Positions 14,780-58,548 of a stretch of 64,000 nucleotides of DNA are shown here, one piece after another. The stretch lies in assembly GCA_035686845.1 (NCBI GenBank), contig DASRZA010000252.1, positions 2,101-66,100 on the forward strand, read 5' to 3'. The DNA is from Armatimonadota bacterium. GTDB taxonomy: Bacteria; Armatimonadota; DASRZA01. The position numbers were made by a program, and so were the translations under genes. Below the pieces are notes generated by a model that worked only from the letters and a program-made list of their open reading frames with translations, did no database searches and had not been told where the DNA came from. How positions within the stretch are numbered: position 1 is the first letter of the stretch; each line of letters begins with the position of its first letter.

Positions 14780-15931
14780 TCAGGCTCCCGCATCCTCGAC
14801 TGCCTGCCATACCACCGCGGTCGTGCGCTCCCAGATAAAACGACGAGCGCGCTCGAGACCAGCGGCGTTAAGCCGGTCCCTGAGCGATGGGTCGGTTAAT
14901 ACCTGCTCCAGCGCGCGGGCGAACGGCTCTGGTGAACCCTCCGCCAGGACCGCGGCGTCTTGCAGATTCTCACGCAGCGCCGCGCCGTTAACGCCGACGA
15001 CCGGAGTCCCGCACGCCATCGCCTCCAACGGCGGTATCCCAAAGCCTTCTGCGGTCGAAGGCTGAGCGAGGAGCGCGGCTTCGCGATAGAGATCCACCAG
15101 CCGCTCGGTCTCCACGTAACCGAGGAACCGCACCCTCTCGGCAATCCCGAGCCGGGCCGCGATTTCAACTAATTGCGGCCGCAGCCCGCGATCTTTGCCG
15201 GCCAGGATCAGTGTTAAGTTCGGCTGCCGGGCGAACAAATTCCCGCAGGATTCTATCAAGAGACGGAGGCCCTTTCGCTCCTCGAGATTGCCAACATAGA
15301 GGATGTAGGGAACGACGCCAGGCTCATTACTCTGCGCGTCCCGCGGTGTGAACCATGGATCGACGCCGAGCGGCGCCACAAACGCGCGGCGTCCAAATCG
15401 CCGCTCCACTTCGAGCTGCACGGCTCGAGTGGGCGTGATAAGCGCACGGGCCCGCCGGATGGTGGGCGGCAGGAGCAGCCGGTAGTGAAGATAGTTCTCC
15501 AACCGGGTCTGCCTCAGATTCAGCCCATGGAGATCATGAACGAAGGTTACGGCAGGGCAGGGGGAGAGCAGTGGCATGACGTACGCCGGACAAAACAAAA
15601 CGTCGGCGCGCCACCGCCGCAAGATCCAGGGCAGTTCCACCTGCTGCCAAAAGATGCGGCGCATCCGGCGCGCGCCGGAGAACGGAAGAAAACAGGCGCG
15701 GGACGCGGGGCGCGGGGCGTGCGGCGCCGGGCGCGGGGCGCGGGGCGCGGGGTTGCTGTCGTCCGTCCTCCGTCCTCCGTCCTCCTCGAACCCGGGCCAG
15801 TCACCGGGGACGAAGATCCGTATTTGATGGCCGCGCGGGTCTGCGAGGAGCCGGCGGATCACGCGGTCGGCGGTCTTCTCCACGCCCGAGTAATGTCCCC
15901 AGAGGACGCTCCCGTCAATGGCGATCTTCAT
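14780..15931 (-). CDS. glycosyltransferase family 4 carrying an in-frame 34-codon low-complexity insertion encoded by heptanucleotide repeats
   Basis: GT4 motif EGFGIPPLEAMACGTPVVGVNGAAL. The N-terminal domain is interrupted by FEEDGGRRTDDSNPAPRAPRPAPHAPRPASRAC, encoded by 15692-15793. Confidence 0.75.
   Translation of the reverse strand: MKIAIDGSVLWGHYSGVEKTADRVIRRLLADPRGHQIRIFVPGDWPGFEEDGGRRTDDSNPAPRAPRPAPHAPRPASRACFLPFSGARRMRRIFWQQVELPWILRRWRADVLFCPAYVMPLLSPCPAVTFVHDLHGLNLRQTRLENYLHYRLLLPPTIRRARALITPTRAVQLEVERRFGRRAFVAPLGVDPWFTPRDAQSNEPGVVPYILYVGNLEERKGLRLLIESCGNLFARQPNLTLILAGKDRGLRPQLVEIAARLGIAERVRFLGYVETERLVDLYREAALLAQPSTAEGFGIPPLEAMACGTPVVGVNGAALRENLQDAAVLAEGSPEPFARALEQVLTDPSLRDRLNAAGLERARRFIWERTTAVVWQAVEDAGA
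15692..15795. repeat. heptanucleotide-periodic repeat tract ((GCGGGGC)~7 then (CTCCGTC)3) inside the GT4 coding sequence
   Basis: ~13 consecutive 7-nt units in register: gcggggc x2, gtgcggc, gccgggc, gcggggc x2, gcggggt ... gtccgtc, ctccgtc x2. Total length keeps the reading frame. Confidence 0.7.
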
Positions 15932-21688: not shown

Positions 21689-21727
21689 CCGTTCCTCCGC
21701 GCTCCTTACCCCGCGCCTCGCATGCTC

Positions 21728-22749: not shown

Positions 22750-23900
22750 TTAACTCGCTGGCTGTGATTAGCCGCCGTTCAAGTTCCCATTTTGACTGGG
22801 ATTCGGGAGAGTTTGAGAACGTATTGCCCTTCGCAGGGAGATCATCTCCGGTTGGCGCAGTGGTGTCCATCGAGTCGATACGTTGACTTCCAATTGTGTA
22901 GGACTCGTATACGAGCACGTATTCTATAGTAGCATTCCCCAAGACGCGAAGCCGCAAAAGAACGCCGCGGCGGGGTAAACGCCAGAGCGCACCCGACAGA
23001 CTGCTGGCTTCACAGGCGGGAGCGCTGCTGCAATTGGTCTCTCAGTTGTCGCAGCTCGTCCAGGCTCATTGATTGCAGCGATGCTTCCGGTGTCGCCTCG
23101 TCCCCAAGCGAAGACTGAAGGAGTAGAACCTGGCCAATCAACATACCCTGCTGGAGCCCCTGCTGCAGCCCCTGTTGGAGCGCGTGTCTCATTCGGGCGT
23201 TCTCGTCTCGCCGCATCTTTTCGCGGCCTTCATAGATCTCCCGTTCCAGGTCTCTCTTTGAAAGCACCATCAGTTCCTCCACTGCCTGCCGGATCGCTTC
23301 GTCGTCTATCGTCGCCGGCAGCGCCTTCTCATCTAATGTTTCCCCATGCTTCAGAAAGTACAGCCACTGGTCTATCTCACTCTCCAGTTCTTCCGCTCCC
23401 TTGTTGAACTTCGCCAACTCAAAGAGGTGGATATCCAGATCCTCCGTGAACACTGCTCCGGTGGCGCGGTCGATCAGCCCGAACCGCGAGTGATACACCT
23501 TTCCCGGAAAGATTGTTCCATCGACGAAGCAAACTGAGATCGTGGGCTGAAGCAGACTGTAGTCCCGGCCGGCTGGGAGCTGTTCGGTATACAGCTTGGA
23601 CCAATAGAACATTATCCGCTGGGGCAGCTCCGCAAACCCGATCATCTGCATCTCGACGTTGAAGTGTCGGCCAATCTGGTCCCGAGCCTTGATATCCAGG
23701 ATGGAGAGCTTCTCATCAAAAGCAGCCTTCTCGGTGAAAGGATTGAGGATTTCAATATGCACAATCCTCTGGCCTGGAGGCAGTTGGAGGACGGCGTTGA
23801 GCAGGTCGATCAGGAGGGCAGCAGTGGCGAGTCTGCCAAACAGCCACTTGAATGCAAAATCCACCTTGGGATCAATGCCAGAACTCATACTCGTCCCCGG
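22750..23900. mobile_element. lower-GC (~50-52%) islet carrying an Rpn-family nuclease/putative transposase gene
   Basis: Visible drop in GC relative to the flanks. Bounded upstream (24068-24205) by a composite repeat array. Confidence 0.35.
23010..23888 (-). CDS. Rpn-family recombination-promoting nuclease / PD-(D/E)XK putative transposase (TIGR01784-like)
   Basis: N-terminus DPKVDFAFKWLFG, ...LLIDLLNAVL..., IVHIEILNPF...LDIKARDQIGRHFNVEMQ match the YhgA/Rpn (transposase_31) family. Glutamine-rich C-terminal tail. Confidence 0.65.
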   Translation of the reverse strand: MSSGIDPKVDFAFKWLFGRLATAALLIDLLNAVLQLPPGQRIVHIEILNPFTEKAAFDEKLSILDIKARDQIGRHFNVEMQMIGFAELPQRIMFYWSKLYTEQLPAGRDYSLLQPTISVCFVDGTIFPGKVYHSRFGLIDRATGAVFTEDLDIHLFELAKFNKGAEELESEIDQWLYFLKHGETLDEKALPATIDDEAIRQAVEELMVLSKRDLEREIYEGREKMRRDENARMRHALQQGLQQGLQQGMLIGQVLLLQSSLGDEATPEASLQSMSLDELRQLRDQLQQRSRL

Positions 23901-24067
23901 TTCAAAGGATTCTATTCATTTACGACGCCAGCAGAGCCATTATACACCTTACCCGCGTCCTCATACCGGCGCCGGCTCTTGCCTCAGGCCCCGCGCCGCA
24001 CGAGCGGAGGCGTGCGCCACTATGCGGTCGCGTACCCCGTTCCCCCGCCTCGCGCCTTCCGCCTATC

Positions 24068-24205
24068 CTTCGTCCTCCGTCCTCCGTCCTCCGTCCGCGC
24101 CTCGCGCCCTCTGCCTGTCCTCCGTGCTCCGTCCTCTGTCCTCCGTCCGCGCCTCGCGCCCTCTGCCTGTCCTCCGTCCTCCGTCCTCCGTCCTCCGTCC
24201 GCGCC
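24068..24205. repeat. composite GC-rich tandem array: ~52-bp higher-order unit [(TCCGTCC)3-4 + GCGCCTCGCGCCCTCTGCCTG] x ~2.7
   Basis: Unit copies at ~24068-24118, 24119-24170 and partial 24171-24205. Related GTACCCCG/CCTCGCGCC motif at 24040-24067. Lies in the divergent intergenic region between the Rpn gene and nagB. Confidence 0.7.
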
Positions 24206-24242
24206 CGACCTAACCTGCTAATCTAAAGTACGGAGGTAGTTC

Positions 24243-24998
24243 ATGAAAATCATCGTGGGCAAGAATCGGGCGGATATCGGGCGGCAGGCGGCGGACGTGG
24301 GAGCGGACCTGATCCGAGCGGCGATTCGCTCGCGGGGCGCGTCCGCAATCATTTTGGCGACGGGAACGTCGCAGTTTGAGATGCTTTCGGAATTGACGAG
24401 CGCACCTGGCATCGACTGGCGCCGGGTCACCGGCTTTCACCTGGACGAGTATGTTGGCATGACGGAAAGCCATCCGTCGTCGTTTCGGCGCTACCTGCGT
24501 GAACGGTTTGTTGAACGGCTGCCGCGAGCCCCCCGGGCGTTTCACTTCATCAACGGGGAAAACGATCCTGCCGCCGAATGCCGCCGGCTCAACAACCTGA
24601 TTTCCGGCGAGACGATTGACGTGGCGTTCGTCGGCATCGGCGAGAATGGCCACCTGGCGTTCAATGATCCGCCCGCCGACTTCGAGACGGAGACGCCGTA
24701 CCTTCTGGTGACGCTTGATGAAGCTTGCCGCCGCCAGCAGCTTGGCGAGGGGTGGTTTCCGAGTCTGGAGGCGGTTCCGATGCAGGCCATTTCGATGTCT
24801 ATTCGACAGATCATGAAATCGAAGGCGATCGTTTGCTGCGTGCCGGACCTACGGAAGGCCGCGGCAGTGAAAGCATGTATCGAAGGTCCCGTGTCCCCGG
24901 AAGCGCCGGCATCTATTCTGCAGCGTCATCCGGAGACGTCGATGTACCTGGATGAGGGATCTGCTTCGCTCCTGAAAGAACGTCCTCCCGCGGTTTAA
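24243..24998 (+). CDS. nagB: glucosamine-6-phosphate deaminase
   Basis: [37 protein letters not shown] are hallmark NagB/6-phosphogluconolactonase-family motifs. SD GGAGG upstream. Confidence 0.8.
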
Positions 24999-29189: not shown

Positions 29190-29440
29190 GACGGGGACGG
29201 CCGAAGAAGGATCAATACCGTTCAAATAACGGGCCCAGTGATTGAAATCACGGGCTAGAACCGCACCAAGTCCACCTACGTGGACTCCTGGAACGAGGCC
29301 AGCAGCGTCTTATCTGAACGGTGTTGGAAGAAGGATGAATCAAAAACGCTGGAGTTATAGGCGCCTGTTCCTGCTTGGGAGGAGAGTCCGTGAGAGAGGT
29401 CTGTGGTGGGCGGAGGACGGAGCCGTGAAGCTCCGCGGGA

Positions 29441-29468
29441 TGCGTACCTCGCGCCTCGTACCTCGCGC
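29441..29468. repeat. 14-bp tandem repeat GTACCTCGCGCCT(C/G) x2
   Basis: Exact adjacent copies. Same GTACC(T/C)CGCGCC family as at 24040-24067 and 31895-31950. Confidence 0.6.
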
Positions 29469-29493
29469 CTGATTGCGAAGGGAAGGGAATGCT

Positions 29494-31770: not shown

Positions 31771-31837
31771 TGTGTGGATGCGTGAATGTGTGGGTGCGTG
31801 AGTATGTGGGTGCGTGAGTATGTGGGCGCGTGAGGTG
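31771..31837. repeat. ~16-bp tandem repeat TGTGGGTGCGTGAGTA x4 immediately downstream of the GS-family gene
   Basis: Copies at 31771-86, 31787-804, 31805-20 and 31821-37 with point differences. Confidence 0.65.
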
Positions 31838-31894
31838 GAGGACGAAGGGTGACGGAGGCAAGGCAGCGGATGAAGGACGAGTCAAGAAGCGCCC

Positions 31895-31950
31895 GGCGCC
31901 GCGCGCCTCGGGGATCGCGCCCCGTACCCCGCGCCTCGCGCCCCGTACCT
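31895..31950. repeat. GC-rich repeats of the CGCGCC(C/T)CG(T)ACC family
   Basis: GCGCGCCTCGGGGATCGCGCCCCGTACCCCGCGCCTCGCGCCCCGTACCTCGGGCC. Same motif family as 29441-29468 and 24040-24120. Confidence 0.55.
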
Positions 31951-31978
31951 CGGGCCCTCCCCACGGGAGTCTGATACG

Positions 31979-33115
31979 TTGATCACGCGCTTTGCGTTTC
32001 CGACGAATGTATTGTTTGGTCCCGGCGCGGTGGGGGAGATCGGCGCGCTTGTGAAGGGGTCAGGGGGAACGGTGGCGCTGATCGTGAGCGATCCGGGGGT
32101 CGTGGGCGCCGGGTTGGTGGCGCCGGTTCAGCGTTCGCTCGAAGCGGCCGGTTTATTCTCGGTGCTCCATGATGGCGTGGCGCCGAACCCGCTTGAGGAG
32201 AATGTGGAGACGGGCGCTGCGCTTTTTCGCCAGGAAGGATGTGACTTCGTGATTGGCGTGGGAGGCGGCAGTGCACTCGACGCCGCCAAGGCGATCCGGC
32301 TCCGAATCACCCATTCCCGTCCGCTGATTGATTACGACGACAACGCCGGCGGCGGCGAGTTGATCCGGAGTGATATGCCCCGCATGATTGCAGTACCGAC
32401 GACCGCGGGAACCGGCAGTGAAGTGGGGCGCAGCGCGGTGATCATCTGCCGTGCTAACCAACGAAAGACGGTGATTTTCAGTCCTCATCTGATGCCATCG
32501 TACGCGGTCTGCGATCCAGAAATGACGGTTGGAATGCCGCCCCCGATCACGGCGGCGACCGGGATGGACGCTCTCACCCACAATATTGAAGCTTTTCTCT
32601 CGACGCCATATCATCCTCTCGCCGACGCGATTGCCCTCTACGGCGCGCGTCTCTGCGCCGAAAACCTCGCCCGGGCGGTGGAGAGCGGGCAAGATCGGGA
32701 AGCGCGAGCGAATATGATGATGGCCGCTATGATGGGCGCGACGGCGTTTCAAAAGGGGCTGGGCGTAACGCACTCACTGGCGCATCCATTATCGAGTGTC
32801 GCCGGGATTCACCATGGGCTGGCAAACGCAATCCTCCTGCCGCACGTTTTGGAATTCAACGCGAGCGCCTGCCAGAGCCGGTACCGGGATCTGAGCAGGA
32901 CTCTCAATGTGCCGGACGCGTCGGGCGCGTTGAGCGAATGGGTGAGGGAGCTGAACCGCAAGATCGGGATTCCGGCGGCTCTCGGTGAAGTGGGCGTCGG
33001 GCGTGATATGATTGCCGCGATGGTTCCAAAGGCGATGGAGGATGGGTGCCATCTCAATAACCCGCGTCCCTGTTCGGCGGAGGACATGCGGGCGCTTTAT
33101 CAGGCGGCGTTTTGA
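31979..33115 (+). CDS. iron-containing (group III) alcohol dehydrogenase
   Basis: GGGSALDAAKAI, metal-binding His-rich blocks (...HNIEAFL..., ...HSLAHPL..., ...HHGLANAILLPHV). TTG start. Confidence 0.8.
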   Translation: MITRFAFPTNVLFGPGAVGEIGALVKGSGGTVALIVSDPGVVGAGLVAPVQRSLEAAGLFSVLHDGVAPNPLEENVETGAALFRQEGCDFVIGVGGGSALDAAKAIRLRITHSRPLIDYDDNAGGGELIRSDMPRMIAVPTTAGTGSEVGRSAVIICRANQRKTVIFSPHLMPSYAVCDPEMTVGMPPPITAATGMDALTHNIEAFLSTPYHPLADAIALYGARLCAENLARAVESGQDREARANMMMAAMMGATAFQKGLGVTHSLAHPLSSVAGIHHGLANAILLPHVLEFNASACQSRYRDLSRTLNVPDASGALSEWVRELNRKIGIPAALGEVGVGRDMIAAMVPKAMEDGCHLNNPRPCSAEDMRALYQAAF

Positions 33116-44657: not shown

Positions 44658-44736
44658 TCAAAGGCTCCAGTCGCTTGAAACGCGCAGTTGAAAATGTGCC
44701 AAACGTCCGGCCATCCTATCCCTCCTTAATAACCCC

Positions 44737-44784
44737 CAGAAGTAAACGCTTCAGAAGTAAACATTCCAGAAATAAACGCTCCAG
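44737..44784. repeat. 15-16-bp tandem repeat CAGAAGTAAACGCTT x3 in the intergenic spacer of the nucleotide-sugar operon
   Basis: ccagaagtaaacgctt / cagaagtaaacattc / cagaaataaacgctc, in the low-GC spacer between the dehydrogenase stop (44803) and the epimerase start (44657). Confidence 0.6.
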
Positions 44785-52446: not shown

Positions 52447-53871
52447 TTAGCGACGCACGGCTGCCCGCCGCCACCATTCCGGGTGGTCGATATGGAGCTT
52501 AATGTAGCCCCCCGAAGGGTCCAGGTAACCGTAATCGGACCAGATGGCGACGCCCTGCCCGTCGATCAGATAGCTGCTGGGGAAGACACGGATTCCGTAG
52601 CGAGTCAGCAGCGCCTTCTGAGGAGCGCCCGGCTGCAGTGTCACGATCGGGTACGATAGATGGGTCTGCGCCAACTCGCTTTTGAGCTCGGCGGGGGTAT
52701 CATTGGCATCAATGACGAGAGCGGTGAATCCCTGGTCCTTCAACGTCTGATAGTCTTTCTCAATCTGGAGAAGCCCCTGGCGGCGAAGCTTAAAGTGATC
52801 GATAAACGCGAGCAGGAGTATCTTCTTGCCTTTCAGCGTGCTGGCGAGGGAGACAGCTCCGCCGTGCGGAGTGGGTATGTTGAATTGAGGCGCTGGCCCA
52901 TGGACCAAACTCGCGTGCATGTTCTCGCGACTGAACGGTTTCGCGCCGGCCGGGCGATGAAACACGAAATCGGAAGGGTTGAGATGGACGTTTAAGTGGA
53001 TGTCGTGGAGGGTGACCGTGTTCGAAGCGCCTACGCCGATCTGAGTCACCTTGCGAAGGAGATGGTCCGGGCCGAAGTAGAGACGGCTCTGCGAATGCCA
53101 GTACGGGTTTACCGGATGTACGACGATGTAGTAGCCATCGGGCCTTCGAGTGGTACCCGAGAACGTCCTACGGTCGCTGGTCACGCTCGATTCCACAATC
53201 TGGCAGCGAACGCCATCGACCACCCCTGTCCCCGCGGCATGAAGGTCGGGCCGGCTGAGATAATTGCGGAGAGCGCGCGGATCGTCCCCGTAGAATGCCT
53301 CAACGGGAGGTAGATCCATGCCGCCCAGTGTGAAGAACGCTTTTCTCACCGGATTGGTGTTGTATCTGATCTGGTGGTGTTCCCAGTCCATCCAGGCGGA
53401 CTGCATCTTACCGTCGGAGACGTCCACGCTGCGGAACCATCCGGACATGACGATACGGCCGATATCCAGCTTCTCCAGCTCTACGACCGCGGTCTCTTCG
53501 GGCATTTTCTTACCGGCGGGCTGATCAATGCCGCCGGTCGAATCAATCGTGATACGTCCGGTGAGCGTCTTGACACGCGCTTCGGCCAGAATGGCCTGGT
53601 GTATAATCGACTGCGCGGATTGCCGATCCGGTTGGGTCGGTCGATTGGTTCGGCCCGGGCGGGCATGCGCCGGGAAGAGCAGCAGACCCAGTCCAACCGC
53701 TGCGGCGAGAAGGGCGCCGTAATAACTGATACGATAGAAGAGGGAGCGCGAAACCGGGTCGCGCCGGCGCATCAGCCACGCGGTCAGAAGTCCAATCGAG
53801 AGCGCCACGGAAACCTGGATTGAAAGGGCTGCGCCAAACGGTAGACGATCAAGAAGGGTCAATGGATGCAT
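52447..53871 (-). CDS. membrane-anchored protein with C-terminal TlpA-like thioredoxin-fold domain lacking the CxxC motif
   Basis: N-terminal TM helices. C-terminal GKKILLLAFIDHFKLRRQG...FPSSYLIDGQGVAIW resembles TlpA/redoxin but with F-K in place of C-x-x-C. Confidence 0.45.
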   Translation of the reverse strand: MHPLTLLDRLPFGAALSIQVSVALSIGLLTAWLMRRRDPVSRSLFYRISYYGALLAAAVGLGLLLFPAHARPGRTNRPTQPDRQSAQSIIHQAILAEARVKTLTGRITIDSTGGIDQPAGKKMPEETAVVELEKLDIGRIVMSGWFRSVDVSDGKMQSAWMDWEHHQIRYNTNPVRKAFFTLGGMDLPPVEAFYGDDPRALRNYLSRPDLHAAGTGVVDGVRCQIVESSVTSDRRTFSGTTRRPDGYYIVVHPVNPYWHSQSRLYFGPDHLLRKVTQIGVGASNTVTLHDIHLNVHLNPSDFVFHRPAGAKPFSRENMHASLVHGPAPQFNIPTPHGGAVSLASTLKGKKILLLAFIDHFKLRRQGLLQIEKDYQTLKDQGFTALVIDANDTPAELKSELAQTHLSYPIVTLQPGAPQKALLTRYGIRVFPSSYLIDGQGVAIWSDYGYLDPSGGYIKLHIDHPEWWRRAAVRR

Positions 53872-54018
53872 CGGAAATCCTCCATGGGCAATCGGGACCC
53901 CGGCGCGTTACCGTGGCGTCGTTCGTCGAGGGGTGAAGGTAACGGCCGTAGTCGTTGTGCCATAGTCGATTATGTCCAGCATTGTAGTCCTCCGCTTCGC
54001 GTCGCGTCAACTCAGGCG

Positions 54019-54070
54019 GGGGACGGAGGACGGAGGACAGAGGACGGAGGACGGAGGACGGACGACGGAT
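54019..54070. repeat. (GGACGGA)~7 heptanucleotide tandem repeat
   Basis: ggacgga x2, ggacaga, ggacgga x3, cgacgga. Reverse complement of the TCCGTCC repeats at 15761-15790 and 24068-24205. Confidence 0.7.
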
Positions 54071-54109
54071 CTCGCGTGCTCCTTGCGCCCGTCTGCGGGG
54101 GGGTGTAGC

Positions 54110-54258
54110 ATGAATCACAACGGCTGCAGTTACAGGCCCCTCTTCCCGCTTCGGGGAGAGGTCGGGAGAAAGGCAAACCAAAGGATGAGGGATGAAGGAT
54201 GAATCACAACGGGCGCAGTTAGAGGCCCCTCTTCCCGTTTCGGGGAGAGGTCGGGAGA
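54110..54258 (+). repeat. tandem duplication (89-bp period) of a 60-bp element containing a 10-bp-stem hairpin, directly upstream of the HEAT-THUMP-MTase gene
   Basis: Copy 1 at 54110-54169 and copy 2 at 54199-54258 (ATGAATCACAACGG(C/G)(T/C)GCAGTTA(C/G)AGGCCCCTCTTCCCG(C/T)TTCGGGGAGAGGTCGGGAGA). Stem CCTCTTCCCG/CGGGGAGAGG with a T-G wobble, which favours RNA on the plus strand. Confidence 0.6.
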
Positions 54259-54285
54259 GAGGTTGAGACGCTGAGAACTGAAAAA

Positions 54286-56067
54286 ATGCCAGCCGACATT
54301 GTTTCTAACCGGCTGACCGCTTTGAAAGCGGCGACGACGGACGAGCGTCTGATCATCGCCGAAGAACTGGCGTCGCTGGCGCCGGCGGCCTCGGACCGTC
54401 TGATTGCGGCGCTGCGACATCCGAACCGCCATGCCCGGTGGGCGGCTGCGCACGCGTTGGGCCGCGGAGGTATCACAGCGGCCGGTCCTGCTCTCCGGGA
54501 ACTGCTTCAAGATCCACAGCCGAGAGTCGCGCGGACCGCGGCGTGGGCGCTCGGACGGATCCGAGACGAAGAGTCCACCCCGGCGCTCATCGCGGCGATG
54601 CGCTCTCCAAACAGCCATCTCTCGACGACCGCGGCGTGGGCGCTCGGGCGGATTGGGACACCGGACGCGCTCGAGGCGCTCTCCGCGGCGCTGGGCGAGG
54701 CGTCTCCCCGGAAGCTCCGGACCATCGCTCTCGCCTTCGCCGAGATCGGTCCCGAGGCGATTGAGTCGCTCGTCACGCTGCTTCGGACCGGATCTGTCGC
54801 CGAACGGACGCGGGCTGCGCATATCCTGGCCCGGTTCGGCGAGAATGCCGTGCCACTGATCCTCCCGCTCTTAGAATCAACCGAGGTGAAGTCGCGACGC
54901 GCGGCCGCCCATATTCTAGGGACGCTCCGGATTCCCGCGGCGGGCGCTTCCGCGAATAATCGTCGCGCGTCGATCGAGGCAGGCCTGGCAAAGGCTTTGA
55001 GTGATGAAGACAGCCGGGTGCGCCGGAACGCGGCCCGGTCTGCTGGCGCGCTGGGTTTGATTTCCGCGCGACCGGCGTTGGAGTCGCTTCTGGGCGGTGA
55101 CCCGGAGCAGGTGAGAGTTGCGGCGAACGCGCTGGCCGCGCTCGGGGATGCGGCGGCCGGCCCCGCGCTGCAATCGGTTCTGGACCGGGAGGATCCGGCT
55201 TTACCTGAAGGCCCTGCCCAGGCGGTGCGCCGGGCGCTGCACCAGATCGACCTCGCGCCGCGAGAGACGCGCAGAGTCGCTTCGCGGCTGCCCGAGGTCG
55301 ATCTGCCTTCTCGCTCTGATTACCTGGCGGTCGTTACAGCGGGGTTGGAAGCTGTGGCCTGGGAAGAGATCAGCGCGCGTTTGGCGGGCGCCTCGCTCAA
55401 ATCATTTGGCGAAGGCACGGTGACGTTTCATTGGACGGGCAGTCCGCAGGCCGGCGCGATTCTTAGATCGGTTCGTCGACTGGCGCAGGGCGGCGCCGAA
55501 CCCAAGGAAATCGCGCTCGCGCGGCGACTCCGTCGCTACCGTGTTCGCACCCTTCCGGCGTCGCTTGAACCGACGACAGCCTACGCGCTCGCTCGACTCG
55601 CTAATCAGGGGGAGCGTGATGTCTTTGTGGATCTTACGTGTGGGAGCGCCACCATCGCGATTGAGCGGGCGCTGGATGGGCCGGCTCGCGCAATATTAGC
55701 GGGAGACATTGATCCAGCCGCCCTGCAGGCCGCCGGAGAGAACGTCGCCGCGGGCGCGCAGCCGGTTCGCCTCGTGCAGTGGGATGCTCGCCGCATTCCC
55801 TTGCGCGACGAGTCGGTGAATGCCGTAGTGGCGAATCTGCCGTACGGCCGCCGGTCCGGTGAGCACCAAGAGAACCTCACGCTCTACCCGGCGATACTCC
55901 TTGAAATTGACCGCATTCTCCGCGGATCCGGCATCGCTGTTCTCCTCACCGCCGAAAAGCGCCTCCTTCGCCGATCCCTCGAATCTCATCCGAATCTCGT
56001 CCTCGTCTCCGAGCGCGAGATCGAAGCCGGTGGTCTGCGTCCGTCGCTGTTCGTGCTGCAGAAGTAA
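54286..56067 (+). CDS. HEAT-repeat (PBS lyase-like) N-terminal region fused to THUMP-like plus class-I SAM-dependent methyltransferase (m2G/N6-adenine-type, NLPY motif)
   Basis: N-terminal repeats RWAAAHALGRGG / RTAAWALGRIRD / TTAAWALGRIG / RAAHILARFG. C-terminal FVDLTCGSATIAIERAL (SAM motif I) and VVANLPYGRR (motif IV (D/N)PPY variant). Intervening THUMP-like region. Confidence 0.6.
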   Translation: MPADIVSNRLTALKAATTDERLIIAEELASLAPAASDRLIAALRHPNRHARWAAAHALGRGGITAAGPALRELLQDPQPRVARTAAWALGRIRDEESTPALIAAMRSPNSHLSTTAAWALGRIGTPDALEALSAALGEASPRKLRTIALAFAEIGPEAIESLVTLLRTGSVAERTRAAHILARFGENAVPLILPLLESTEVKSRRAAAHILGTLRIPAAGASANNRRASIEAGLAKALSDEDSRVRRNAARSAGALGLISARPALESLLGGDPEQVRVAANALAALGDAAAGPALQSVLDREDPALPEGPAQAVRRALHQIDLAPRETRRVASRLPEVDLPSRSDYLAVVTAGLEAVAWEEISARLAGASLKSFGEGTVTFHWTGSPQAGAILRSVRRLAQGGAEPKEIALARRLRRYRVRTLPASLEPTTAYALARLANQGERDVFVDLTCGSATIAIERALDGPARAILAGDIDPAALQAAGENVAAGAQPVRLVQWDARRIPLRDESVNAVVANLPYGRRSGEHQENLTLYPAILLEIDRILRGSGIAVLLTAEKRLLRRSLESHPNLVLVSEREIEAGGLRPSLFVLQK

Positions 56068-58530: not shown

Positions 58531-58548
58531 GCGCCGGTACCCCGCGCC

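Follow-up and report, generated by a model that had tools for sequence, protein, structure and literature searches.

A composite repeat between an Rpn-like gene and nagB

We analysed a 64,000-nt stretch of DNA (hereafter the window, on which all coordinates are based) from a metagenome-assembled genome (MAG) of the Armatimonadota, and in particular a GC-rich tandem repeat at 24046–24205 that occupies part of the 354-bp divergent spacer between an Rpn-like gene and nagB. The Rpn-like gene on the left flank (23010–23888, minus strand) is a PD-(D/E)XK nuclease-family 'transposase' gene (Pfam PF12784, PDDEXK_2, E = 5.3e-59) that is transcribed away from the array, and nagB (24243–24998, plus strand; Pfam PF01182, Glucosamine_iso, E = 3e-18), encoding glucosamine-6-phosphate deaminase, starts 38 nt past the array end. 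The Shine–Dalgarno (SD) region of nagB, 7 nt upstream of its ATG at 24243, reads ACGGAGG (24229–24235, plus strand), exactly the reverse complement of the CCTCCGT repeat unit. No promoter was located at the nagB site. The NagB protein is 100% identical to an Armatimonadota-MAG protein at NCBI that is named glucosamine-6-phosphate deaminase, and its next relatives are at most about 70% identical. The window as a whole is ordinary chromosomal DNA of 61% GC, with genes for a sulfatase, GFO/IDH/MocA, MurJ, glycosyltransferases and similar proteins, and it contains no tRNAs.

The preliminary description of this DNA had placed a composite GC-rich minisatellite in the divergent spacer, and Tandem Repeats Finder (TRF), a repeat search and Pfam bear this out, its coordinates being right to within about 10–20 nt. 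On the plus strand, three 52-bp copies (24046–24097, 24098–24149 and 24150–24201) are followed by a partial copy, as seen by TRF, by the repeat search, in the sequence and in its composition. TRF reports a period of 52 with 3.1 copies, 92% matches and a score of 278, without indels, and the repeat search finds three in-register copies at 24043, 24095 and 24147 (spacing 52 + 52), of which the second and third are 88% and 92% identical to the first. The 52-bp higher-order unit had thus been recognised correctly, whereas its copy number, given as about 2.7, had been set too low. Each unit reads GCGCCTC, GCGCCCT, CTGCCTG, four times TCCTCCG and a final TCC, that is, seven heptamers plus three bases, and is built from two heptamer types, TCCGTCC and GCGCCYC, with three heptamers of the GCGCCYC type per unit. 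Nested within it, TRF finds a period-7 array of the unit TCCTCCG with 20.4 copies at 24066–24200, and our own scan calls three period-7 segments of at least 85% identity. At its 5′ edge the array is preceded on the plus strand by the degenerate lead-in heptamers GTACCCC and GTTCCCC (24032–24045), identified in the sequence and by alignment with other GTACCYC sites; GTACCCCG lies at 24032–39 and CCTCGCGCC at 24048–56. The supposed 12-bp building block of the preliminary description, GTACCYCGCGCC, proved to be two heptamers in register. The plus strand of the array is nearly free of A (A1 C87 G31 T41), with a GC skew of about −0.47 and an AT skew of −1.0.

Copies 2 and 3 of the 52-bp block differ by two mismatches, and the edge copy has diverged further. 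Three such copies with a diverged edge copy are typical of tandem duplication, and the exact 52-bp spacing of the three composite blocks indicates that the block was duplicated rather than inserted three separate times. The array is not a clustered repeat of the CRISPR type, as had already been stated: each of the 'spacers' that separate the 24-nt blocks is an identical (TCCGTCC)4 run and not a unique sequence. Coding through the array was likewise considered and rejected, because the three open reading frames that cross it do so only for the reason that the repeat has no stops in any frame, and they have no Pfam match.

The array is the same in all assemblies in which the locus was recovered intact. 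An ENA MEGAHIT contig (L001) and two JGI contigs (L197 and L198) are 99.90–99.98% identical to the window across the locus, with no gaps, and in the four assemblies, which represent at least three samples, the array shows neither an indel nor a substitution, with 2–5 single-nucleotide polymorphisms (SNPs) elsewhere. A further contig, the Logan unitig contig L002, ends inside the array, as unitig assemblies do at repeats. The source samples of the locus are ERZ27256801 and JGI 3300031670 and 3300031671. The compared assemblies differ by only 0.02–0.1%, and the next relative of nagB is only about 70% identical. The check for copy-number variation that had been proposed was made across four assemblies that are at least 99.9% identical, and within this shallow sampling it found no variation in length. 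The sole difference in the spacer is at position 23912, which is C in the window and T in L001, L197 and L198; this substitution sits in an AT-richer segment beside the start of the Rpn-like gene.

Heptamer arrays in the window and in other genomes

Tandem arrays in this DNA are specific to a period of 7. With a threshold of at least three copies at 85% identity or more, a scan of the window gives eight period-7 segments at four sites and none at periods 6 and 8–11, which are at chance; in 100 first-order Markov simulations, period 7 averages 0.25 segments and never exceeds 2. A similar excess is seen in 640 kb of metagenome contigs that were chosen solely for a nagB homologue, with 37 arrays at period 7 versus 6, 6, 1 and 2 at periods 6, 8, 9 and 10, and the units in this set are very diverse and follow base composition. 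In 769 kb around the (TCCGTCC)n arrays of other genomes described below, the counts are 211 at period 7 versus 30, 52 and 6 at periods 6, 8 and 9. We rejected a pervasive period-7 structure of intergenic DNA as the source of this signal, as the lag-7 signal of the window is gone after masking of the called arrays. The absence of a lag-7 signal outside the called arrays indicates that the arrays are discrete events. The period-7 excess matches the published over-representation of heptameric simple-sequence repeats (SSRs) in bacteria (PMC4692102). As in that class, the arrays consist of at least three head-to-tail 7-bp copies, show an excess specific to period 7 and are mainly intergenic, at four of the five sites in the window.

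The four other sites with related building blocks that had been listed for the window were all recovered by TRF and motif scans, and the tendency of the copies to lie at gene boundaries held, given that four of the five sites are intergenic. In the window, TCCGTCCTCCGTCC with up to two mismatches has 20 matches (1.28 expected in shuffled controls), CCTCGCGCC has 13 (2.6 expected) and GTACCYCGCGCC with up to one mismatch has 7 (1.2 expected). The site at 29408–29470 (plus strand; TRF, motif scan) is bipartite, with a short G-rich GGCGGAGGACGGAG followed by two copies of CGTACCTCGCGCCT at 29443–29470, and ends 24 nt before 29494, the start of a xylose-isomerase-like TIM-barrel gene according to the gene call of L001. 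A second bipartite site at 31836–31957 (plus strand; TRF, sequence) begins with degenerate G-rich heptamers (GGAGGAC, GAAGGGT, GACGGAG and so on) and continues with a C-rich block at 31896–31957, which TRF reports at periods 7, 14 and 21 and which consists of nine in-register GCGCCYC or GTACCYC heptamers; it ends 22 nt before the start of an Fe-ADH (iron-type alcohol dehydrogenase) gene at 31979. Site B, at 54017–54069 (plus strand; TRF, sequence), is an array of 7.6 GGACGGA units (TRF unit CGGAGGA), which are TCCGTCC on the minus strand, and is hosted by a 414-bp divergent spacer between a thioredoxin-fold gene (52447–53871, minus strand) and a HEAT/methyltransferase gene (54286–56067, plus strand). 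In addition, the motif scan found two single words on the plus strand, one of the GTACCYCGCGCC type (TTACCCCGCGCC, 21706–21717), which forms part of a degenerate C-rich tract between two genes 39 nt apart, and one GTACCCCGCGCC (58537–58548) in a 45-nt spacer between genes.

In three of the intergenic arrays the C-rich strand is the sense strand and the array stops 22–38 nt short of a start codon. At three sites (15695–15787, 29408–29470 and 31836–31957) a G-rich heptamer block is followed by a C-rich block of a different unit. Block order and copy number differ from site to site, and the sites share no common flanking sequence and have no fixed element boundaries. The GTACCYCGCGCC-type words lie at 21706, 24032, 29444, 29458, 31924, 31945 and 58537; those in intergenic DNA are all on the plus strand of the window regardless of gene direction, and are too few to separate a replication-strand effect from chance.

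Several further features accompany these sites. On the minus strand beside site B, a promoter-like site at 54010–53981 (TTGACG, 18 nt, TACAAT) has 10 of 12 matches, with 0.1 expected in shuffles; it lies 7 nt from the array end, which places the array upstream of the predicted −35 element of the thioredoxin-fold gene and not in a leader. The same spacer holds a 74-nt direct repeat (54100–54173 and 54189–54262; 89% identity, spacing 89), each copy of which has a GC-rich hairpin-like core, GGCCCCTCTTCCCG(C/T)TTCGGGGAGAGG, that occurs twice only in the window and has no Rfam match, and the two copies are separated by (AAGGATG)x3.3 at 54181–54203. At 31773–31834, a 16-bp tandem repeat (TGTGGGTGCGTGAGTA x3.9, 91% matches) starts 13 nt past the stop of a glutamine-synthetase-like gene and runs into the G-rich and C-rich heptamer blocks upstream of Fe-ADH. 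Intergenic tandem repeats with longer units are found at 2954–2997 and 44736–44784; a perfect 17-mer, GAGGCCCCGCCATCAGT, is repeated 2.6 times in a 721-bp divergent spacer and a 15-mer, CCAGAAGTAAACGCT, 3.3 times in a 145-bp spacer.

The fifth array site lies inside a GT4 glycosyltransferase gene (14780–15931, minus strand), where in-frame heptamer arrays occupy 15695–15787 on the minus strand (TRF, Pfam, protein alignment, codon comparison). Read on the plus strand, (GGCGCGG)x8.3 at 15695–15752 is followed by (GTCCTCC)x4 at 15758–15785, and on the sense strand of the gene three to four GGAGGAC units precede eight units of the CCCGCGC type. These 93 nt, or 31 codons, are translated as EDGGRRTDDSNPAPRAPRPAPHAPRPASRA, a low-complexity variable linker. 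The array opens at conserved Phe-Glu-Glu-Asp codons, of which Glu-Glu-Asp is encoded by GAGGAGGAC; the codons in the window (GAG GAG GAC GGA GGA CGG AGG ACG GAC) read as GGAGGAC three times from the conserved Glu-Glu-Asp. GT4 homologues of 51–56% identity keep the motif DW.GFEE(D/G), and their linkers are of 15–19 unrelated residues versus 27 here; the high-GC homologue L200 (53% identical) has GAGGAGGAC once, followed by an unrelated linker. Because the in-gene array begins at native, conserved codons, it points to local expansion of a native proto-repeat rather than to insertion of a foreign element, and by this codon comparison it is a clear case of a non-triplet repeat entering a coding region. 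No heptamer array is present on the contigs (49 kb) that carry the closest GT4 homologues, whereas a Chthonomonadaceae MAG has many, which indicates that the array load is genome-specific. The JGI version of the GT4 protein (P0001) is identical over about 290 residues, a stretch that takes in the repeat-encoded linker; beyond it the sequence departs and stops at 310 amino acids, which implies that the JGI assembly has a frameshift or a sequencing error around codon 305.

TCCGTCC arrays are not unique to the window. An exact scan for (TCCGTCC)3 in species-representative genomes found it in at least 113 stretches of DNA from at least 12 phyla. Among the matches listed are Verrucomicrobiota, Planctomycetota, Chloroflexota, Bacteroidota, Pseudomonadota, Desulfobacterota, Myxococcota, Actinomycetota, Cyanobacteriota, Armatimonadota, Gemmatimonadota, Acidobacteriota and others, as well as isolates of Streptomyces, Microbacterium and Jannaschia, Microbacterium candidum ASV49 and Jannaschia rubra CECT 5088 being examples. 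Several of the genomes among these matches have (TCCGTCC)n at 2–4 separate loci, and the cyanobacterial MAG Leptolyngbyaceae RU_5_1 has it at four. The arrays of other genomes grade into point-mutant units such as TCTGTCC, TCCGCCC and TCCGTCA, among others. Recurrence in at least 12 phyla, isolates included, is more in keeping with repeated independent origins than with a single family that was inherited or mobile. By contrast, GTACCYCGCGCC has no match in 196 of the 198 fetched loci, and the remaining two, L001 and L196, represent the contig of the window itself; among the fetched loci it is therefore lineage-specific.

Among the matches listed, a reverse-complement partner lies no more than 120 nt away from 20 of 98 (TCCGTCC)n arrays, and in 18 of the 20 pairs the G-rich (purine) arm lies 5′ of the C-rich arm (p = 4e-4), an arrangement that is identical on both strands; the paired loci include L015, L021, L026, L036, L043, L053, L060, L062, L080 and others. 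Pairs of unrelated heptamers in the nagB-homologue contigs L137, L145 and L146 obey the same G-rich-first rule, and the arrays of the window have no reverse-complement partner. With crude gene calls, the clearly intergenic arrays listed show no preference in orientation relative to neighbouring genes (11 / 11 / 11 / 6). In a crude survey with equally crude gene calls, sense strands upstream of putative starts are somewhat more often pyrimidine-rich (84 versus 55), a weak excess that is partly expected from the pairing rule. The 7-nt register, the re-use of few units and the G-rich-first pairing are properties of the whole class and not of the nagB locus.

A link between such arrays and the Rpn-like gene was rejected, as tblastn found no homologue of it in about 1.4 Mb of other loci, including the 113 that carry arrays. 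A nagB-specific association was rejected as well: among 80 foreign loci, 3 have arrays next to nagB homologues, built from unrelated units, which by a rough estimate is about what the density of intergenic arrays would lead one to expect. The arrays in question, at L145 (85–113 and 868–964), L173 (9964–9997) and L189 (9958–9983 and 10741–10768), lie within 4–18 nt of where nagB homologues of three distant lineages start or stop; the units near nagB homologues are GGCAGAA, AAATTTT/AAATCTG, AAATTGA, GACGAAT and others.

Structure tests were negative throughout. Rfam 15 gave no match at gathering score over the whole window and none at E up to 1 for 23880–24250 and 53870–54290. Folded as RNA, the two strands of the array and three further sites were no stabler than dinucleotide shuffles (z from −0.47 to +0.33), and a structured RNA or known RNA family was therefore rejected, with no Rfam match and five folds of z about 0. 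There are no inverted repeats or palindromes at the arrays, and no terminator-like sites (a GC-rich hairpin with a T/U run) at or beside any of them, so that an intrinsic terminator was rejected too. The criterion used for the G-quadruplexes of Xanthomonas, at least four tracts of three or more G, leaves out the array, which has GG tracts only.

Origin of the array and rival explanations

The array is a member of the known class of over-represented heptameric bacterial SSRs, and we consider it probable that it is a locally generated, now quiescent composite heptamer repeat without a dedicated function. We infer, from the anatomy of the array and from the codons at which its in-gene relative begins, that short native proto-repeats expanded in situ by slipped-strand mispairing in a 7-nt register, and that the TCCGTCC and GCGCCYC units grew side by side. 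The mixed 52-bp block may then have been duplicated to three copies, either by slippage or by unequal exchange between the flanking heptamer runs. The array would persist because a divergent intergenic spacer tolerates such DNA. We see it as a by-product that is for the most part neutral and whose cis effects on the neighbouring genes, if any, are incidental; it lengthens the divergent control region by 160 bp. If transcribed with nagB, it would give an A-free, C-rich, unstructured leader with many CCUCC motifs and the composition of a Rho loading site, in which the CCUCCGU units would be complementary to the nagB ribosome-binding site (RBS), ACGGAGG.

Four observations weigh against this explanation. 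The array shows no change in length in four assemblies, although active slippage predicts polymorphism; at a divergence of 0.02–0.1%, this is a weak test. The same two units recur at 4–5 sites within 64 kb, and several other genomes also re-use one unit. There are about 1,170 possible heptamer classes, and purely random seeding would not lead one to expect such re-use; some sequence preference, dispersal or selection is therefore at work. The three arrays that lie 22–38 nt before starts with a C-rich sense strand, together with the 84 versus 55 excess, leave room for a role at the RNA level. Finally, the preferred 7-nt register is without an explanation, here or in the literature.

Such a role at the RNA level would be that of a cis-regulatory nagB leader, in which the array, as 5′ untranslated region, tunes or lowers expression through about 15 CCUCC(GU) units that pair with the RBS, or serves as a Rho (rut) site. 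The exact complementarity of CCTCCGT to 24229–24235, the A-poor and unstructured composition of the array, the C-rich sense strand of the three arrays near starts and the pyrimidine-sense excess all speak for it, and the TAACTGA heptamers just upstream of starts, for which a role in translation has been proposed (PMC4679880), provide a precedent. The minimum-free-energy fold indeed pairs the nagB SD with one repeat unit, but its z-score is only −0.47, no better than that of shuffles, and any GGAGG SD pairs with CCUCC, so that the two extra matching bases amount to a 1 in 16 chance. Moreover, transcription of the array is putative in that no promoter was located at the nagB site, the array at site B lies upstream of a promoter-like −35 element, arrays in other genomes show no orientation bias towards neighbouring genes, and nagB homologues of other lineages have unrelated heptamers or none. 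On balance we regard a leader function as unlikely, while giving it some weight. It is quite improbable that the array acts through non-B structure, with a G-quadruplex on the (GGACGGA)n strand and an i-motif on the C-rich strand affecting transcription or replication, as proposed for the GGGAATC repeats of Xanthomonas. RNA of three GGAGGAC units forms a parallel two-tetrad G-quadruplex in vitro, as seen by nuclear magnetic resonance, circular dichroism and reverse-transcription pausing (PMC4536295), the heptamer repeats of Xanthomonas and Nostoc form G-quadruplex and i-motif in vitro (PMC4692102), and the strand asymmetry of the array is strong. However, this support comes from in vitro work, and the array has GG tracts only, so that any two-tetrad quadruplexes should be weak in duplex DNA; the GCGCCYC heptamer has no such potential, and quadruplexes cannot explain the class, since many of the heptamer arrays of comparable genomes lack G tracts or are AT-rich.

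The preliminary description had favoured a genome-wide dispersed, REP-like (repetitive extragenic palindromic) family with possible roles as terminators or insulators. Of this, the dispersal stands within the window, with several related arrays at five or more sites in 64 kb, whereas the REP-like element does not: with no palindromes or inverted arms, folds of z about 0 and no common flanks, the arrays are plain heptamer SSRs. REP/REPIN elements were rejected for the lack of inverted repeats, of a stable hairpin and of a fixed unit, and no RAYT transposase was seen in a Pfam scan of the 22 real genes of the window, which covers 64 kb of the genome. A mobile family of the REP or MITE (miniature inverted-repeat transposable element) type, copied by an enzyme to gene boundaries as terminator or insulator, would account for the presence of the same two blocks at 5–7 mostly intergenic places in 64 kb and for the lineage specificity of GTACCYCGCGCC among the 198 fetched loci. 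It is nevertheless very improbable, as the arrays have no palindrome, inverted repeat or stable hairpin and neither common flanks nor fixed boundaries, their copy number and block order differ at every site, one of them grows from native codons, and the Rpn-like gene is not associated with arrays elsewhere; the terminator role in particular found no terminator-like site at any array. Variable-number promoter spacing, another role that had been suggested, would make the array a contingency (phase-variable) locus in which gain or loss of units switches the Rpn-like gene or nagB. An SSR between divergent genes is suitably placed for this, phase variation by heptanucleotide SSRs is known in Haemophilus, and the Logan assembly L002 breaks inside the array, whether from heterogeneity or merely from the repeat. 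Yet the identity of the array in four assemblies from at least three samples, despite 2–5 SNPs nearby, lends variable spacing no support even if the sampling is shallow; the imperfect units (75–92% matches) suppress slippage, and a free-living environmental host has no obvious need to switch nagB. We therefore rejected a phase-variable locus, which is scarcely credible here. Lastly, an assembly artefact, in the form of a collapsed or expanded repeat or a chimeric join, might be feared where short-read metagenome assemblies, which often mishandle repeats, are used and where the Logan contig ends in the array. Its likelihood is practically nil: the array is identical in the window, the ENA MEGAHIT contig and two JGI contigs from different samples, and its 160 bp are within read or insert length, so that collapse or expansion is ruled out by the concordance of the assemblies.

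A broader possibility concerns the heptamer arrays as a class. Rather than passive debris of slippage, they could be traces left by a specific molecular process that works in a 7-nt register and spans phyla, with the nagB array acting at the RNA or DNA level. We consider this decidedly unlikely; the occurrence of GGAGGAC/TCCGTCC in at least 12 phyla, the preference of genomes for few units and the G-rich-first order in 18 of 20 pairs are in its favour. If it were true, the nagB array could set the expression of both divergent genes, in one direction as a C-rich Rho-loading or anti-Shine–Dalgarno leader, in the other as a barrier prone to form quadruplexes. Under our preferred explanation of a local, functionless repeat, the instance in the nagB spacer is by itself unremarkable, as a spacer-borne heptamer repeat that is stable and apparently neutral. 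What the analysis adds is the heptamer-SSR phenomenon in the Armatimonadota, a clear case, by its codons, of an array growing from native codons into a protein linker, and the finding that arrays of one heptamer recur in at least 12 phyla and pair in a consistent orientation. Unit preference, orientation rules and local seeding could together constrain why 7 bp is favoured, a question that dates from 2007 and for which a single locus is insufficient.

Relation to known repeat families

A literature search for the exact repeat returned eukaryotic oligonucleotides only and no bacterial match. REP and REPIN sequences are, like the array, short, GC-rich, intergenic and present in multiple copies; they are, however, fixed-length imperfect palindromes moved by RAYT transposases, whereas the array has no palindrome, fixed unit or hairpin. 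The short tandemly repeated repetitive (STRR) sequences of cyanobacteria resemble the array as tandem heptanucleotide families that are scattered in intergenic DNA and have no function as far as described, and differ in their unit sequences and phylum. The STRR name reportedly goes back to Mazel et al., who in 1990 applied it to heptanucleotides of Calothrix PCC 7601. Three heptanucleotide families had earlier been reported in Calothrix, according to the citation in PMC4692102.

The TAACTGA repeats are heptamer arrays just upstream of starts in Beggiatoaceae, cyanobacteria and Bacteroidetes (MacGregor 2015, PMC4679880). As with TCCGTCC, one heptamer forms tandem arrays across distant phyla, often upstream of starts, and a post-transcriptional role has been proposed. 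Unlike the arrays described here, they are AT-rich and only a few nt from the start, and related heptamers are rarely repeated in that genome, whereas ours comprise several unit types and end 22–38 nt, or more than 140 nt, from starts.

In Xanthomonas, each genome has about 180–185 arrays of GGGAATC with 2–26 units, which are mostly intergenic and occur singly or in 'convergent' pairs (Rehm et al. 2015, PMC4692102). Their position is kept between related species while their length varies, and Rehm et al. relay the hypothesis that the 7-nt register corresponds to the DNA segment held by the polymerase; Nostoc has comparable heptamer repeats of the form GGGGA(C/T)T (PMC4692102). These repeats and the present ones are alike in being G-rich/C-rich heptamer arrays, and the (TCCGTCC)n pairs of other genomes share the 'convergent' rule (18 of 20). 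The differences lie in the GGG or GGGG tracts of the former, compared with GG tracts, unpaired arrays, two unit types and no length variation seen in the window.

The closest relatives of the array are the heptameric long SSRs whose over-representation in bacteria was reported by Mrazek, Guo and Shah (2007), as cited in PMC4692102, where their function is described as unexplained and polymerase slippage as their proposed origin. As far as that account goes, the array differs from them in being a two-unit composite with a 52-bp higher-order repeat, and the Armatimonadota lie outside those surveys. It has in common with them the tandem 7-bp units, the excess at period 7, the mainly intergenic position, the imperfect copies and the few favoured units per genome.

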